Shown here: in pieces, positions 2,753 to 9,836 of the stretch | Layout of the letters: every line of letters starts with the position of its first letter | Position numbering within the stretch: position 1 is the first letter of the stretch | IMG/VR virus record: IMGVR_UViG_3300038443_000672 | DNA from: a virus | Length of the DNA stretch: 41,929 bases | Direction: 5' to 3' (one strand) | Made by a program: the position numbers and the translations under genes | The notes under the pieces: generated by a model | What the model saw: the letters and a program-made list of their open reading frames with translations, nothing else | Database searches by the model: none | What the model was told of the DNA's origin: nothing

Positions 2753-3586
2753 CTATTCCTGGAAAGCCCAGCCGGGCAAAGTGATAAGGGAAATCTCCTT
2801 CGAGTAGCCGGGCCATTCGCCAGACTCTTGGCAGCGTGCAAACGTCGCGAGATTGCGCGCATAGTCGGCGCGCCCCTGATCGCGCGAGGCGCCGTCGAGC
2901 ATCATCGCGTTGGCCGCATACGGCCATTCTGTTTCCACAGCGACGAAGATGAACGCCAGAACGTCTAGGCCGCTCGCGTGCGCGAAGCCATCGCTGTAGA
3001 ACGCGTCCTGCACGTGATAGCGCTTGCGCGCCGCTTGCCGCGCGAACTCTGACGGGCTCGCATTGCTGTACGTCTTCACGTCGAGCAGCACGACCGACGA
3101 TTCTCCGCATGGATGCGACCAATCGGGCCGGCAGCGGCATTTCACACCCGTCGCCGGGTCAGTCCAGAAGGCCGATACCTCGGGGCGGCCGACTTCGAGC
3201 GCGTCGCGCACGTCCGGTAGGCCGCGCACCGATTCGGCTTGTCGCATCGCGGTGTCGTACTGGTCGGCTTGAATCGCGATACGGTCGGAATTCTTTTCGA
3301 CAAAGTCTTTCCATATCTTCGTGTTCCGGTTGACGGTTGGGCCGACGATGTAACGCTTCTCGAACTCGGCCGGCTCGAGGATCGCGCAGTGCGCGAGGTT
3401 GCCTTCCAACTGCCCTTGCTTGGCAGCAGGCGCCGGGCGCTTCGGATGCAGATGGCGCGCGTAGCAGATCGCGGGCGACAGATTGATGTCGTCGAGCCAC
3501 GTCTTGCTCACCGATTCGGTAATCGCGTGGTACTCATCGATCGACAGCGAATGATCGAGATACGCGGGGGCGGTTAGCTCGCTCAC
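2753..3586 (-). CDS. RecE-like PD-(D/E)XK exonuclease (exodeoxyribonuclease VIII-like domain)
   Basis: 277 aa. Motifs seen: GNLAHCAILEP, EVSAFW, CRCRPDW, LLDVKT (D-x-K), QDAFY and WPGY, as in RecE C-terminal/DUF3799-type nucleases. Confidence 0.75.
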   Translation of the reverse strand: MSELTAPAYLDHSLSIDEYHAITESVSKTWLDDINLSPAICYARHLHPKRPAPAAKQGQLEGNLAHCAILEPAEFEKRYIVGPTVNRNTKIWKDFVEKNSDRIAIQADQYDTAMRQAESVRGLPDVRDALEVGRPEVSAFWTDPATGVKCRCRPDWSHPCGESSVVLLDVKTYSNASPSEFARQAARKRYHVQDAFYSDGFAHASGLDVLAFIFVAVETEWPYAANAMMLDGASRDQGRADYARNLATFARCQESGEWPGYSKEISLITLPGWAFQE

Positions 3587-6001: not shown

Positions 6002-6295
6002 TCAGGACGGCGGACGGCGGCAAGCAACCAACATCGAGCGTTTCATGACGGGGCCGGTGAAGAAGTTGCCGCCGCTTGCGGCTGCCGTCCGGCCGTTCTC
6101 GGAACCACCGGCGAGCACATCGTAGCCGTCGCCCTTACAAATATCGCCTGCCTTTTCGTAACAGGCGCCCCAACTCATAGCCATCCCGGAGCAGTCAATC
6201 GAATATGCGCGCCGGCCATCGGGCGAATAGGTCTCGTGGGACACCGCGCACCCGGCCAGTAAGGTTGCGAACGACAATGCAATTATTCTCTTCAT
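6002..6295 (-). CDS. Lipoprotein (97 aa), candidate superinfection-exclusion/moron gene
   Basis: MKRIIALSFATLLAGC has a lipobox (LLAG|C). The mature part has 4 further Cys. It sits between the repressor gene and PL. Confidence 0.7.
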   Translation of the reverse strand: MKRIIALSFATLLAGCAVSHETYSPDGRRAYSIDCSGMAMSWGACYEKAGDICKGDGYDVLAGGSENGRTAAASGGNFFTGPVMKRSMLVACRRPPS

Positions 6296-6308
6296 TTGGC
6301 TCGCCCAA

Positions 6309-6336
6309 AGAAAAAAATCCCGCGCTAGGGCGGGAT
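6309..6336 (-). terminator. Intrinsic terminator/attenuator between the repressor and lipoprotein genes
   Basis: Minus strand: ATCCCGC, a 6-nt loop, GCGGGAT, then TTTTTTTCT. The stem is nearly identical to the 5947..5974 terminator. It ends 13 nt before the lipoprotein ATG. Confidence 0.6.
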
Positions 6337-6508
6337 AGGATTGGCTTCCATTCAATGTCTCAGTTGCTTTAAAGCTCGTATGACGATCAGAAGGTGGTGC
6401 GCTATTTCGTCCATGACTTCTCGGTCTCCTTGCTGCTTCCCCGCTCGAGCGTCGCGATCGGGCGGTCGCGCTCGCCTGTACGAATCAAGATCGACTACCT
6501 GCACTGCA

Positions 6509-6982
6509 CTATTTGCTTCCTGCATTTTTTTCCTCTACGGGTCCCTGGCGTTGGCGGGGCACCAGTTCCATTACCTCTCGCTCGGCAAGGTCAAGTAAAT
6601 CGTGCTCCGCTTTTGCATCTTCTACATGGTGCTCAGGGAAGGATAGTAGGAATAAACCCGCATGTAAGACGAAAGACTTGCGCGCGCGGGCGCCAAGCCC
6701 GTCCAGGCGTTCTATGCATTCGATTAAAACGCTCGCCTCTGGGGACAGTGAGGGTTTATCCCTACCCTTCGGCTCTCCGTCGCCCATGACCAGCCATGCT
6801 GTTCGATATCCAAGTTCCTTTTCGATGCATGTGGCGTAGCTCATTTTCATCGACTTTATTTTTCCGTCCAACCACTGGTTGACGGTGCCCTTCGTTACGC
6901 CAGCAATCCTCCCGAGCGCCGCCTGATCTAGTTCAGGGTGCTCTGAAAATATCCGCTGGACGCGCTCGCTGAGTGTCTTCAT
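6509..6982 (-). CDS. cI-like repressor (XRE-family HTH), no S24 peptidase domain
   Basis: HTH LDQAALGRIAGVTKGTVNQWLDG. It is divergent from the cro-like gene. The C-terminal 80 aa lack Ser/Lys autocleavage motifs. Confidence 0.75.
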   Translation of the reverse strand: MKTLSERVQRIFSEHPELDQAALGRIAGVTKGTVNQWLDGKIKSMKMSYATCIEKELGYRTAWLVMGDGEPKGRDKPSLSPEASVLIECIERLDGLGARARKSFVLHAGLFLLSFPEHHVEDAKAEHDLLDLAEREVMELVPRQRQGPVEEKNAGSK

Positions 6983-6991
6983 GTTCAGGAA

Positions 6992-7046
6992 TCTAAACGT
7001 GTTGTGGTTTAGAGTGCTTTCCTTTTTCGGTTTAGCGTCCTATACT
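6992..7046 (+). promoter_or_regulatory. Early-right promoter (PR-like) and operators in the cI/cro intergenic region
   Basis: TCTAAAC-N8-GTTTAGA inverted repeat (6992..7013). Then GTGC-TTTCCT(-35)-(17 nt containing GGTTTAGC)-TATACT (7041..7046). The box layout matches that at PL. Confidence 0.55.
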
Positions 7047-7074
7047 CGCCGTCAGAGCATTTTGGAGCGGACGC

Positions 7075-7302
7075 GTGAACCACCTAACCAAGCAGCAGGC
7101 GGTTGGCATCTTTGGCACCGCGACAGCGCTTGCCGATGCCCTTGGAATCACTAAAGGCGCGGTATCGCAATGGCCTGATGACCTCGATACGCAGCGCACG
7201 GCAGCGGTGATCGGCGCCGCCGTTCAGTCTGGCCGCGCTGATCGCATTCCGGCCGGGTTCGTCTGTCAGCGCCAAATCAAGGAAGAAACCGACAGCACAT
7301 AA
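7075..7302 (+). CDS. Cro-like regulator (YdaS-type HTH)
   Basis: GTG start with GGAG 7 nt upstream. HTH ALADALGITKGAVSQW. Confidence 0.7.
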   Translation: MNHLTKQQAVGIFGTATALADALGITKGAVSQWPDDLDTQRTAAVIGAAVQSGRADRIPAGFVCQRQIKEETDST

Positions 7303-7342
7303 CGCGCCCACTCCCTTCTTCTAACAACACAAAAAGCGCGGA

Positions 7343-7621
7343 GTGGGACCGGTGAGCAAACGCATCAAACACATGAAGGGTGGCGGCATGGGTCGAACAC
7401 GCGGTCGATCGATCGGCAAGCTCACGTCCGAGATCAAGGTTCGAGTGGACGATGAGACGCGCGACGAGTTGGATCGTCTGGCGTCAGACGCCGGGATGGA
7501 TCTGTCGCAGTTCCTTCGGGAACTGGTGCTGATTCGCGTCTACGGCCGAGCCCACATTGCAAGGTTACAAGAGCGACGTTTGGCCATGGTCGCGGGAATA
7601 GGCCACGACGAGGACGACTAA
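7343..7621 (+). CDS. Ribbon-helix-helix (CopG/Arc-like) DNA-binding protein in the cII position
   Basis: KVRVDDETRDELDRLASDAGMDLSQFLRELV fits a beta-strand plus two helices. The real start may be GTG 7352 or ATG 7373/7388. Confidence 0.5.
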   Translation: MGPVSKRIKHMKGGGMGRTRGRSIGKLTSEIKVRVDDETRDELDRLASDAGMDLSQFLRELVLIRVYGRAHIARLQERRLAMVAGIGHDEDD

Positions 7622-7667
7622 GGGGCCGCAACATCGTCGCTCATTCGATATGACGTGGGAGGTGGAA

Positions 7668-7748
7668 GTGGAACTGTTTATCGACCTATTCATGCTGTCG
7701 CTGTGCGCGTTTGCATTTGGCGCGCCGATCGTTTGGCTGGTGTGGTGA
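7668..7748 (+). CDS. Candidate 26-aa hydrophobic peptide, not in the ORF track
   Basis: GGGAGG at 7657..7662, then GTG at 7668. Translation is MELFIDLFMLSLCAFAFGAPIVWLVW. The stop is 3 nt before the next gene. Confidence 0.3.
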   Translation: MELFIDLFMLSLCAFAFGAPIVWLVW

Positions 7749-7751
7749 GCT

Positions 7752-8378
7752 ATGACAGTCGCCGTTCTCTTCGCACGCCACGACAGCATCTATAAGACGC
7801 TGCCCGGCTGCGACGTGTGGGATGAAGCACGCGACGCGCGCAAATGGCCCGGTGGTGCGCCTGTTATCGCGCATCCGCCGTGTCGAGCATGGGGCGGATT
7901 GAGTCACATGGCTAGGCCGAGAGAAGGTGAGCGAGAGCTGGCGATTTGGGCCGTGGATCGCATAAGGGAATGGGGTGGTGTGCTCGAACATCCACGTGCG
8001 TCGCGTCTTTGGAAAGAGTGCGGGCTGCCTGCCCCCGGTAAGAGAGATCGATTCGGCGGATTCACGTGGCCGATTCATCAAAACTGGTTTGGGCACCGCG
8101 CCCGAAAATCCTCTCTGCTTTACATCGTCGGTACTGAGCCGCGCCAATTGCCCTTGATGCCACTCGAGCTCGGAGAACCCGCGTACGTAGTCAGCACGTC
8201 GAGGCGAAATAAGGACGGCTCGCGCGAGGGAAACCGCCCGAACATCACGAAGCAGGAGCGGGAGCATACGCCTAGATTGCTTGCCGAATGGCTCGTCGAG
8301 CTCGCCCGTCAGTGCGAAAGCGCTATTCCATCGCGCCGCGAATCCGCCGCGATTTCCGATCTCTTTGCGGATTGCTGA
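7752..8378 (+). CDS. C5-cytosine-methyltransferase-like protein lacking a recognisable SAM-binding motif I
   Basis: 208 aa. HPPCRAWG (Cys44), VLEHP (Glu79) and GHRARKSSLLYIVG (Arg116/118) have the order and spacing of MTase motifs IV, VI and VIII. The N-terminus reads VLFARHD instead of F-x-G-x-G. Confidence 0.4.
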   Translation: MTVAVLFARHDSIYKTLPGCDVWDEARDARKWPGGAPVIAHPPCRAWGGLSHMARPREGERELAIWAVDRIREWGGVLEHPRASRLWKECGLPAPGKRDRFGGFTWPIHQNWFGHRARKSSLLYIVGTEPRQLPLMPLELGEPAYVVSTSRRNKDGSREGNRPNITKQEREHTPRLLAEWLVELARQCESAIPSRRESAAISDLFADC

Positions 8379-8380
8379 GC

Positions 8381-8902
8381 ATGAGTTCCATACCGCAACG
8401 CATCTTCGATATTCAGATGCTTATCGCATCGATGCGACCGGTGCGAGGCGACTGGCGCCAGCGGTTCCACGTCCTGCGCCACAACTACCGTATGTATGCC
8501 CAGGCGGTCGACGCCGGCGTCGTGAGGTGGGGATACCCATGCGATCCGTACATCGTCGGTGATTGGGCATCTCTGATGACTCCGATCGAGGCCGCCATGT
8601 GGGACGAGTTGCGCTCGGAAGGTTTGCCGTTTTGGCCGCAATTTCCGGTTGGCAAGTACATGGTCGACTTCGGCGATCCAGTGCGCCGCATCGCGATCGA
8701 GTGCGACGGCAAAGAATTTCATCAGGACTACAAGAAGGATGCTCGGCGCGACGCTGAAATCGAAAGTCTGGGTTGGTCCGTACACAGAATTTCCGGGCGC
8801 TCTTGCTTCGAAGACGAAGTGGCGTTCACCGACGAAACCGGGTTTCGGTACGGGCTTGATTTCTTTCGGGCGGGTATGAAGCGAGAGGAATCAGATGCGT
8901 GA
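8381..8902 (+). CDS. DUF559 / Vsr-fold endonuclease-domain protein
   Basis: 173 aa. YMVDFGDPVRRIAIECDGKEFHQ...DARRDAEIESLGWSVHRISG matches the DUF559 pattern. The start is 2 nt after the upstream stop. Confidence 0.7.
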   Translation: MSSIPQRIFDIQMLIASMRPVRGDWRQRFHVLRHNYRMYAQAVDAGVVRWGYPCDPYIVGDWASLMTPIEAAMWDELRSEGLPFWPQFPVGKYMVDFGDPVRRIAIECDGKEFHQDYKKDARRDAEIESLGWSVHRISGRSCFEDEVAFTDETGFRYGLDFFRAGMKREESDA

Positions 8903-9836
8903 TTACGCCAAGATCGCACCGAAGTTTTGGACCGGGCAAACGGGAAAGGACATCCGAAAAGGAGGCTCGGAGGGGGTTGTCGTTGCCCTTTACCTGATGA
9001 GTTCGCCGCATTCAAACATGCTCGGGCTTTTCTATCAGCCAATGCTCTACATGGCCCACGAAACTGGATTGGGCATCGAAGGGGCATCGAAGGGCCTTAA
9101 GGCATGCATTGAAGCTGGTTTATGTGCCTTCGATGAGGCATCGGAGATGGTTTGGGTCTACGAGATGGCCTCCTACCAGATAGCCAATGAACTAAAGCCC
9201 GCAGACCGTCGGTGCATTGGCATCCAGAAAGACTATGAAGCCCTGCCGGCATGCCCTTTCCTTGGGCCATTCTTCGATCGGTACAAAAATGCTTTCAACC
9301 TGACCAAACGCCGTTCTTCTGAACCCCCATCTGTAGCCCCTTCGAACCCCCATCGAAGCCAGGAACAGGAACAGGAACAGGAACAGGAACAGGAACAGGA
9401 ACAGGAACAGGAACAGGAGCAAAACCCACTGTCGAGTTCGCGCTCAAGTTCGCCCGAAGTCGAGCAAATTTTCGCGTACTGGCAAAAGCGGATGGACTCG
9501 CCGCGATCGGTTCTTGACGACAAACGGCGAAAGGCGATCAAGGCCGCACTTCGCATGGGCTACTCGCCAACCGACCTGTGCAAAGCAATCCGAGGCTGTT
9601 CGCTCACGCCGCACAACATGGGCCAGAACGAGCGCGGGCAAAAGTACAACGGCATCACCTTGATCCTTCGCAGTGCCGACCAGATCGATCGATTCATTGC
9701 CAACGACGCGGCACCGCCGCGCGCCAACGGTCATGCGAACGGCGTGCTTGCGCACAACGATGCGGTAATGGCTGCTTTTCTCGCTGGCGACTCGCCGGCG
9801 TCCAGTGACCCGATGACGATCGACATGGAGCAATGA
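8895..9836 (+). CDS. Replication initiator (lambda O-like role; conserved phage C-terminal domain)
   Basis: The C-terminal IFAYWQKRM...LDDKRRKAIKAALRMGYSPTDLCKAIRG...HNMGQNERGQKYNGITLILR is typical of phage replication proteins. There is an internal (EQ)10 linker. Confidence 0.6.
   Translation: MRDYAKIAPKFWTGQTGKDIRKGGSEGVVVALYLMSSPHSNMLGLFYQPMLYMAHETGLGIEGASKGLKACIEAGLCAFDEASEMVWVYEMASYQIANELKPADRRCIGIQKDYEALPACPFLGPFFDRYKNAFNLTKRRSSEPPSVAPSNPHRSQEQEQEQEQEQEQEQEQEQEQNPLSSSRSSSPEVEQIFAYWQKRMDSPRSVLDDKRRKAIKAALRMGYSPTDLCKAIRGCSLTPHNMGQNERGQKYNGITLILRSADQIDRFIANDAAPPRANGHANGVLAHNDAVMAAFLAGDSPASSDPMTIDMEQ
9361..9420 (+). repeat. Hexanucleotide tandem repeat (AGGAAC)x9 plus one AGGAGC
   Basis: Read directly. 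It is in frame and encodes Q(EQ)10 within the replication initiator gene. Confidence 0.95.

Follow-up and report, generated by a model that had tools for sequence, protein, structure and literature searches.

The temperate-phage contig IMGVR_UViG_3300038443_000672, analyzed here over its entire length of 41,929 nucleotides (nt) and called the window, encodes a 208-amino-acid (aa) protein of the phrog_12600 family. We put at slightly better than even the chance that this protein is a compact, stand-alone homologue of the C5 DNA methyltransferases that works through Cys44 and Glu79, has a remodeled cofactor pocket, and marks phage DNA early, with the DUF559 nuclease gene that follows being an unrelated neighbor. 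The reading draws on fold prediction, conservation, distribution, gene fusions, and synteny, from which we infer the use of S-adenosylmethionine (SAM), methyl transfer, a DNA substrate, and a role against restriction. The open reading frame (ORF), as delimited in a preliminary description of this region, is borne out by the sequence, and the two genes at issue are as follows.

7752..8378, plus strand: phrog_12600-family gene whose 208-aa product is the compact C5-methyltransferase-like protein (ORF, PHROG, AlphaFold2, Foldseek)
8381..8902, plus strand: DUF559/MTES_1575 nuclease gene, whose 173-aa product is predicted to adopt a Vsr-like PD-(D/E)xK fold (Pfam, AlphaFold2, Foldseek)

The predicted structure of the 208-aa protein (AlphaFold2 with 27 homologues; mean predicted local distance difference test [pLDDT], 88; predicted template modeling score [pTM], 0.84) supports its placement in the C5-methyltransferase fold class. 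When the model was compared with the PDB by Foldseek, all 50 of the top 50 matches were C5 DNA methyltransferases (DNMT3A/B/C, M.HaeIII, M.HhaI, DNMT1, and plant MET1/ZMET2), with probabilities mostly of 0.9 to 1.0 (lowest, 0.72), E values from 8e-4 upward, and template modeling (TM) scores normalized to the query (TMq) of 0.30 to 0.51. Ordinary Rossmann-fold methyltransferases are far commoner and are missing from these 50 matches, indicating that the match is specific to C5 enzymes despite modest TM-scores. Against BFVD, the majority of matches were cytosine or SAM-dependent methyltransferases (E values down to 1.4e-5; TMq, about 0.5), several of them only 210 to 250 aa long. In the model, secondary-structure elements and motifs follow one another as they do in the C5-methyltransferase core. 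The resemblance to these enzymes proposed in the preliminary description exceeds chance at the level of the fold.

Conservation was counted in an alignment of 127 sequences that covers both subfamilies of phrog_12600 together with phage isolates. The elements of the 208-aa protein that bear on its assignment are listed with their coordinates.

7767..7796, plus strand: degenerate motif I region, L6-F-A-R-H-D-S-I-Y-K15, in predicted strand 1 and the loop after it, with FxGxG replaced
7821..7838, plus strand: motif II-like element, D24-E-A-R27-D28-A29, where predicted strand 2 ends (consensus DIERDA)
7872..7892, plus strand: motif IV, H41-P-P-C44-R-A-W47, with the predicted catalytic cysteine, after a predicted strand at residues 38 to 40
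7974..7994, plus strand: motif VI-like element, G75-G-V-L-E79-H-P81, at the end of a predicted strand at residues 76 to 81 (compare ENV)
8079..8123, plus strand: motif VIII region, Q110-N-W-F-G114-H115-R-A-R-K119-S-S-L-L-Y124 (alignment)
8133..8252, plus strand: variable segment, residues 128 to 167, at the place of the target-recognition domain (TRD) of C5 methyltransferases (entropy, pLDDT)
8259..8294, plus strand: motif X-like element, R170-E-H-T173-P174-...-L181, opening a predicted helix at residues 175 to 189 (alignment, AlphaFold2)

The cysteine at the center of the proposal (Cys44, TGT at 7881..7883, within HPPCRAWG) is kept in 125 of the 127 homologues, the other two having serine, which supports a catalytic protein; the prolines before it, P42 and P43, occur in all 127. 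Glu79 (GAA at 7986..7988, within VLEHP) is likewise present in 125 sequences, beside G76 and P81 (127/127 each) and H80 (123/127). The motif reads EHP, not ENV, and stands 35 residues after the cysteine, as against 38 in M.HhaI. The residues that the preliminary description gave for M.HhaI (C81, E119, R163, and R165) hold when read on a sequence identical with that of PDB 10mh, and the cysteine and glutamate that it matched to them are almost invariant where expected. Its arginines are not: R116 and R118 are indeed found within GHRARKSSLLYIVG, but position 116 is R, P, or K and position 118 is R, E, or Q among homologues, such that QxRxR is absent and these freely varying residues are not the equivalents of R163 and R165. 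Conservation in the motif VIII region lies instead in Q110 and G114 (127/127 each), H115 (122/127), K119 (126/127), a threonine or serine at position 121, and Y124 (122/127).

The claim that the protein has no SAM motif proved partly right. The N-terminal VLFARHD is present as described, and the canonical FxGxG loop is absent, the protein reading LFARHDSIY; the region is not, however, wholly devoid of a motif, since a degenerate motif I is conserved as L-[FY]-x4-[SG]-x-Y (L6 and Y14, 125/127 each; position 12, S or G), in which nothing of FxGxG persists beyond an aromatic residue and a single small one (S/G12). The homologue from PQ43W has GG exactly at the last two glycines of LFAGxGG, and a low-confidence maximum-accuracy (MAC) alignment by hhalign agrees with the suggestion that this region corresponds to LFAGxGG.

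A further claim, that motifs II and III and the TRD/IX/X region had given way to an unrelated 80-aa tail, is contradicted by the alignment, which shows a conserved motif II-like DIERDA and, in the tail, a variable segment together with a strongly conserved helix marked by R170, T173, P174, and L181. The C5-methyltransferase consensus at motif II is EIDKxA, and D24-x-x-R27-D28-A29 (D24, 121/127; R27, 122/127; D28, 113/127; A29, 122/127) would be its counterpart, with D24 at the ribose-binding acidic position of Rossmann methyltransferases. Only 20 residues separate D24 from C44, compared with 41 in M.HhaI, indicating that motif III (about 20 residues) is missing. Residues 128 to 167 vary from 26 to 49 aa in length, being shortest in microviruses, and have the highest column entropy of the alignment (2.39, compared with 1.65 in the core) and the lowest pLDDT of the model (66 to 86). 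After this segment, R170 (120/127), T173 (125/127), P174 (125/127), and L181 (126/127) form an R-E-x-T-P...L helix that would correspond to the GN(A/S)VPPxLA of motif X. The variable insert and the conserved helix occupy the places of the TRD and motif X, neither with the canonical sequence, and the C-terminal part of the protein can be read as a mini-TRD followed by a motif X-like helix.

The 208-aa protein matches phrog_12600, a family of "unknown function," with an E value of 6e-72, and has no match in Pfam, NCBIfam, or PADLOC. The subfamily to which it belongs contains 4,751 clusters at 90% identity (2,138 representatives at 50% identity), and a second subfamily, which includes the proteins P0390 to P0509 among those listed, contains at least 8,000, so that the whole family exceeds 12,000 such clusters. 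Members of the second subfamily have ALYVETDGxYF in the motif I region and an additional insert following the PC loop. No listed member of the family carries a Pfam annotation, and all of the source names given are "hypothetical protein"; a search from the divergent subfamily for intermediates bearing PF00145 returned at least 8,000 further members with zero Pfam annotation. Our literature search found no functional study of the family, and the dcm genes of Pf phages are not established members of it. One member has been linked to methylases in print: for Gp8 of phage Ebor, published HHpred results gave the "probable DNA methylase" Q67472 with an E value of 2.3e-8 (PMC11980548). Ebor Gp8 also matches phrog_12600 and is 44% identical to the 208-aa protein over 89% of the protein.

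Several results weigh against the assignment to C5 methyltransferases. PF00145 gave no match at an E value of ≤1 to the 208-aa protein or to six divergent family members, and sequence searches of the PDB, by phmmer with the protein and by hmmsearch with the profile, gave no match. Family profiles of 59 and 127 sequences were compared by hhalign, in local, global, and low-mact modes, with M.HhaI and with a nine-sequence C5-methyltransferase alignment (M.HhaI, in the version identical to PDB 10mh, plus eight phage C5 methyltransferases); the E values (0.32, 0.085, and 0.022) were not significant. The sole reproducible profile alignment places HPPCRxW on GFPCQxx, in agreement with a nonsignificant hmmsearch alignment obtained with filters off, so that, judged by sequence, membership in the PF00145 family is not supported. 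For every motif except motif IV, we infer the residue equivalences to C5 methyltransferases, and the TM-scores to these enzymes are modest (0.30 to 0.55). FxGxG, motif III, QxRxR, and GN(A/S)V are not in canonical form, which weakens the case for SAM binding. Nanopore calls on Ebor DNA (1.58% 5-methylcytosine [5mC] in any context) are uninformative, and the Ebor authors were unable to attribute methylation to Gp8 (PMC11980548). Lastly, plasmids yielded zero homologues in 72,556 records, compared with 14 phage records and many prophages, an absence that would be surprising in a generic anti-restriction methylase.

The genomic settings of the family are those of phage orphan DNA methyltransferases. 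Two family proteins (P0138 and P0170) are fused to a complete N-terminal Dam-type adenine methyltransferase, with FAGTAA and DPPY motifs, and a third (P0157) carries a C-terminal ParB_N domain; the same associations recur between separate genes, the phrog_12600 gene coming directly after a Dam gene in MW202476 and after a ParB-like gene in Persinger. Such fusions and neighborhoods are typical of orphan enzymes. The gene adjoins the Rep gene in the microviruses Ebor, Tortoise microvirus 37, and Ciona-associated microvirus, and it is also found in an 11-kb Xanthomonas phage and in inovirus-like prophages, in lambdoid nin regions, beside the primase or helicase genes of Caulobacter and Ralstonia phages, and, in Mu-like Pseudomonas phages, a few genes 5' of the Mu-type portal and morphogenesis genes. 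Prophages with proteins 52 to 64% identical to that of the window occur in Proteobacteria, Acidobacteriota, Bacteroidota, Planctomycetota, and other phyla. The position of the gene in the window, between the gene at the cII position and the replication genes, had been called odd for accessory cargo, but the family lies elsewhere too beside Rep, primase, helicase, or DNA modification genes. Clear homologues also occupy unannotated or partly annotated gaps in deposited phage genomes: locus L177, 2501-3097 (MW202476); L179, 2501-3085 (PQ43W); and L180, 2501-3103 (Persinger).

Neighborhoods were read in 160 loci (80 viral loci from IMG/VR and 80 from GTDB genomes), each taken with flanks of at most 5 kb to left and right; the 80 IMG/VR loci encode methyltransferase-like proteins 49 to 65% identical to that of the window. 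The 65 immediate downstream neighbors include NinG, NinB, Rep_trans, N6_N4_Mtase, Mom, DUF1376, DnaT, and integrases, and clustering of all flanking ORFs in the 160 loci revealed no constant partner of the methyltransferase-like gene. The commonest flanking clusters, which indicate inovirus-like elements, are a rolling-circle Rep, present in 24 loci, together with repressors, integrases, and a Zot-like ATPase. In those 24 loci, a rolling-circle Rep-like ORF of about 600 aa (cluster 5 among L010 to L176; e.g., L030, 2763-4598) adjoins the gene, with a same-strand overlap in 12.

If the protein acts as M.HhaI and the DNMT enzymes do, it would flip the target cytosine out of the helix, Cys44 of the PPC loop would attack C6 of the base, and Glu79 of the EHP motif would protonate N3, after which a one-carbon group, most probably methyl from SAM, would be moved to C5. 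The remodeled cofactor pocket would retain the motif I aromatic residue, the acidic residue with which strand 2 ends, and the motif X-like helix, with the glycine loop degenerate, helix A truncated, and motif III deleted. Residues 128 to 167 may act as a minimal target-recognition element. The gene could then be self-sufficient cargo of the early operon, marking phage DNA during replication, and the mark would most plausibly shield that DNA from host restriction or other DNA-sensing defenses.

The same fold and the same covalent attack of cysteine on C6 could also serve another cofactor or another outcome, which we consider unlikely: transfer of a group other than methyl from a SAM analogue or other donor, cofactor-independent deamination or exchange, or a step in DNA hypermodification. 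Replacement of FxGxG by L-[FY]-x4-[SG]-x-Y and the apparent deletion of motif III would fit such a change, as would motifs VIII and X that are noncanonical yet strongly conserved, and some members adjoin Mom or PAPS-reductase-like genes. C5 methyltransferases are known to promote deamination of cytosine when SAM is lacking, and they can then also add aldehydes from outside. Yet the lack of a constant partner gene leaves no source for an unusual donor or for further steps, and the gene is carried by microviruses of 5 to 6 kb that have no other enzyme of such a kind. Moreover, the retained motif I aromatic residue, strand-2 acidic residue, and motif X-like helix suit an adenosyl cofactor, and a DNA deaminase would be mutagenic to its own prophage. 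A related and slightly less probable proposal is that phrog_12600 proteins are new minimal cytosine-attacking enzymes whose remodeled pocket makes no classical use of SAM; they might work with another alkyl donor or without cofactor, or have a phage-specific anti-defense role different from classical methyl protection. This would explain the strong conservation, the carriage by single-stranded DNA (ssDNA) phages of 5 to 6 kb, and the absence from plasmids.

A substrate other than DNA, either RNA (for example, tRNA, as for DNMT2) or free nucleotides, is improbable. Such an enzyme might, for instance, shield tRNAs from defense nucleases; in its favor, the TRD-like segment is tiny (26 to 49 aa), the family is restricted to phages and missing from plasmids, and DNMT2 structures are sequence relatives of M.HhaI with a common fold. 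Against this, the top 50 PDB matches are all DNA methyltransferases, with no DNMT2 or RNA m5C enzyme among them, and the fusions and neighbors of the family are DNA modification or DNA-binding modules (Dam, ParB, N6_N4 methyltransferase, and Mom). More doubtful again is a catalytically inert protein of the DNMT3L type, a pseudo-methyltransferase that would bind DNA or flip bases and thereby regulate or block some other factor. The lost SAM loop has its parallel in DNMT3L, and any activity of the 208-aa protein is so far putative; but pseudoenzymes lose catalytic residues, and here the cysteine of the PC motif, the glutamate, and about 40 other positions are at least 85% conserved across many phyla at overall identities of 31 to 70%.

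The genes needed to judge the last alternative, in which the methyltransferase-like protein and the nuclease act together, are these.

7343..7621, plus strand: gene for a ribbon-helix-helix protein at the cII position, 5' of the methyltransferase-like gene (subthreshold Pfam)
7650..7748, plus strand: small hydrophobic ORF of 32 aa, MTWEVEVELFIDLFMLSLCAFAFGAPIVWLVW, the left synteny anchor (read from the sequence)
8895..9836, plus strand: DnaD-like replication initiation/helicase-loader gene (PHROG: DnaD-like helicase loader, replication initiation protein)

That the two proteins form a functional dcm/vsr-like or restriction-modification-like pair, one marking and the other nicking, is very improbable. 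In the window the genes do lie on the same strand in one operon, only 2 nt apart (stop TGA at 8376..8378; next ATG at 8381), and the nuclease has the Vsr fold. The adjacency is real, but a DUF559 gene lies within 5 kb in at most 1 of the 160 loci: tblastn with the nuclease of the window found none in the 80 viral loci, none of the 65 immediate downstream neighbors of the methyltransferase-like gene has a DUF559 domain, and a DUF559 hidden Markov model built from 120 homologues gave a single weak match (E value, 4e-4), 2.3 kb away, among the six-frame ORFs of all 160 loci. Conversely, no methyltransferase-like gene lies within 3 kb of four of the closest DUF559 homologues (50 to 56% identity), read in six loci, and the called genes near them include no Pfam methylase match. 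The pair does not co-occur in related genomes, and the functional module that the preliminary description had proposed is largely refuted.

The nuclease gene instead keeps company with replication genes. DnaD-like and helicase-loader genes lie directly downstream of these DUF559 homologues in related phages, the nuclease gene occupying one site just 5' of them in each of the six contexts read for the four homologues. In the window, its stop and the start of the replication gene overlap by 8 nt (8895..8902, ATGCGTGA), and the same 8-nt overlap recurs in locus L090 at 3488-3495 (GTGCGTGA), giving xTGCGTGA in common. The replication proteins of the window and of L090 both start with MRDY, and the DUF559 proteins are only about 55% identical; the conserved overlap suggests that translation of the nuclease and that of the replication initiator are coupled.

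The other side of the nuclease gene shows how the methyltransferase-like gene may have come to stand before it. A hydrophobic ORF of 27 aa runs right up to the DUF559 start in L090 (2921-3004), L092 (2918-3001), and L093 (2921-3004), whereas its counterpart in the window, at 7650..7748, abuts the methyltransferase-like gene. Since the hydrophobic ORF and the DUF559 gene are adjacent in these relatives, the simplest reading of the gene order is that the methyltransferase-like gene was inserted between them. Its adjacency to the nuclease gene is accordingly incidental, and the nuclease is an unrelated neighbor tied to the replication module. The small ORF itself (27 to 32 aa, ...LFMLSL...W) is conserved and is uncalled in the annotations of L090, L092, and L093. 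Both junctions of the methyltransferase-like gene, at 7746-7754 and 8376-8383, read TGAGC(T)ATG (stop, 2 to 3 nt, start), which may be insertion microhomology or chance.

Two further interpretations of the region were rejected. A type II restriction-modification pair is at odds with the occurrence of DUF559 homologues that have no methyltransferase-like gene within 3 kb, and a defense system is not indicated by PADLOC, which has nothing for the methyltransferase-like protein and weak matches, at the level of domains only, for the nuclease.

The identification of the nuclease as a DUF559 protein, made in the preliminary description, is confirmed by Pfam scores above the cutoffs (PF04480 [DUF559], 49.0 bits with a cutoff of 20.6; PF18741 [REase_MTES_1575], 51.2 bits with a cutoff of 38.2) and its Vsr-like fold by Foldseek. 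All 120 of the homologues listed match PF04480, and 119 of these also match PF18741, whereas the Vsr profile PF03852 gave no match to the 173-aa protein at an E value of ≤1. In its AlphaFold2 model (pLDDT, 93), the C-terminal domain is closest to 3r3p (I-Bth0305I; TM-score normalized to the target [TMt], 0.65; root-mean-square deviation [rmsd], 2.5 Å) and 3hrl (NGO0050), with weaker similarity to Vsr (1cw0 and 1vsr), and residues D96, E107, D109, H114, and D120 are invariant. The protein is a DUF559 nuclease with the Vsr fold, not a member of the Vsr family, and is most readily taken to be free-standing and either homing-type or associated with replication. Its longest reading frame opens at 8288, but the start was set at 8381, near which homologues begin. 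A pattern scan of IMG/VR found no close DUF559 relatives.

The window is the entire contig of a temperate phage. It encodes an integrase and a lysozyme as well as SU10-type portal, capsid, and adaptor proteins, and its closest DNA relatives are phages of Ralstonia, Burkholderia, and Xanthomonas. No other recognizable methyltransferase was found in its 41.9 kb. The early region from 6200 to 9600 has a lower G+C content throughout, and the methyltransferase-like and DUF559 genes are not distinct within it, so that composition gives no evidence of recent acquisition. A scan for promoters and terminators detected nothing above shuffled sequences and no such signal between the two genes. The product of 7343..7621 scores just below the Pfam cutoffs (NikA-like, 25.8 bits with a cutoff of 27; RHH_1, 20.3 bits with a cutoff of 20.5). 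Within the DnaD-like replication gene, at 9360-9418, lies a perfect (CAGGAA)x9.8 tandem repeat; it codes for alternating glutamate and glutamine (EQEQ...) between the N- and C-terminal halves of the protein and is probably a flexible linker of variable length. In the structural and lysis region (12400-36000), domains of the Lipase_3, Glyco_hydro_26, and Peptidase_S74 (endosialidase chaperone) types occur in what are probably tail-fibre or depolymerase proteins; an HNH_3 endonuclease is encoded too, as is a DUF3799 PDDEXK protein.

If active, phrog_12600 proteins of about 160 to 210 aa would be among the smallest DNA C5 methyltransferases, with a noncanonical cofactor loop and almost no recognition domain, and they would be useful both for defining the minimal enzyme of this class and as compact tool enzymes. 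The family is unnamed in Pfam and NCBIfam and is unannotated in several deposited phage genomes; given its size (more than 4,700 clusters in one subfamily and at least 8,000 in the other), a functional assignment would annotate many thousands of genes, and it would explain cargo borne even by genome-limited microviruses and inovirus-like elements. Annotation of the two genes of the window as a dcm/vsr-like module is tempting but wrong, adjacency in a single genome being no evidence of coupling.

Among known systems, the 208-aa protein is closest to the catalytic domains of the C5 methyltransferases (M.HhaI, M.HaeIII, DNMT3A/B, and DNMT1; PF00145), with which it shares a predicted Rossmann-like fold and a Pro-Cys loop after strand 4; a glutamate ending strand 5, a variable insert that separates the motif VIII and X regions, and a C-terminal helix predicted to pack like motif X would be further points of agreement. 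Unlike these enzymes, which have 280 to 330 or more residues, the phrog_12600 protein has about 190; ENV is replaced by EHP, QxRxR by Q-x3-G-H-x-A-x-K-x-T, and GN(A/S)V by R-E-x-T-P; and helix A is truncated, motif III is missing, and the TRD is cut to 26 to 49 variable residues. The family represents a new, uncharacterized form of a known enzyme class, with putative SAM use and methyl transfer. Small viral cytosine-methyltransferase-like proteins in BFVD, such as the putative cytosine methyltransferase of Tetraselmis virus 1, are similar in size and give the closest matches in structure (about 0.5 for both TMq and TMt), but they differ in sequence, being only 13 to 18% identical to the 208-aa protein. 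Ebor Gp8, a "putative DNA methylase" (PMC11980548), belongs to the same family, and its published HHpred link agrees with the fold result; it differs in its length of 163 aa, its even smaller variable segment, and its setting beside the Rep gene of an ssDNA phage.

The gene order in the window resembles dcm-vsr of E. coli, in which a C5-methyltransferase gene is also closely followed by the gene for a Vsr-fold nuclease. There the pairing is conserved and functional, Vsr repairing the T:G mismatches that arise from deamination of 5mC at Dcm sites. In contrast, the pairing in the window is peculiar to its phage lineage, and the nuclease is DUF559/EDxHD-like and belongs to the replication module. 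The nuclease has its best structural matches in the EDxHD homing endonuclease I-Bth0305I (3r3p) and in NGO0050 (3hrl), at a TMt of 0.65 and an rmsd of 2.5 to 3.0 Å; I-Bth0305I is intron encoded and has another DNA-binding region, whereas the nuclease of the window is free-standing and has a two-helix N-terminal region of its own.

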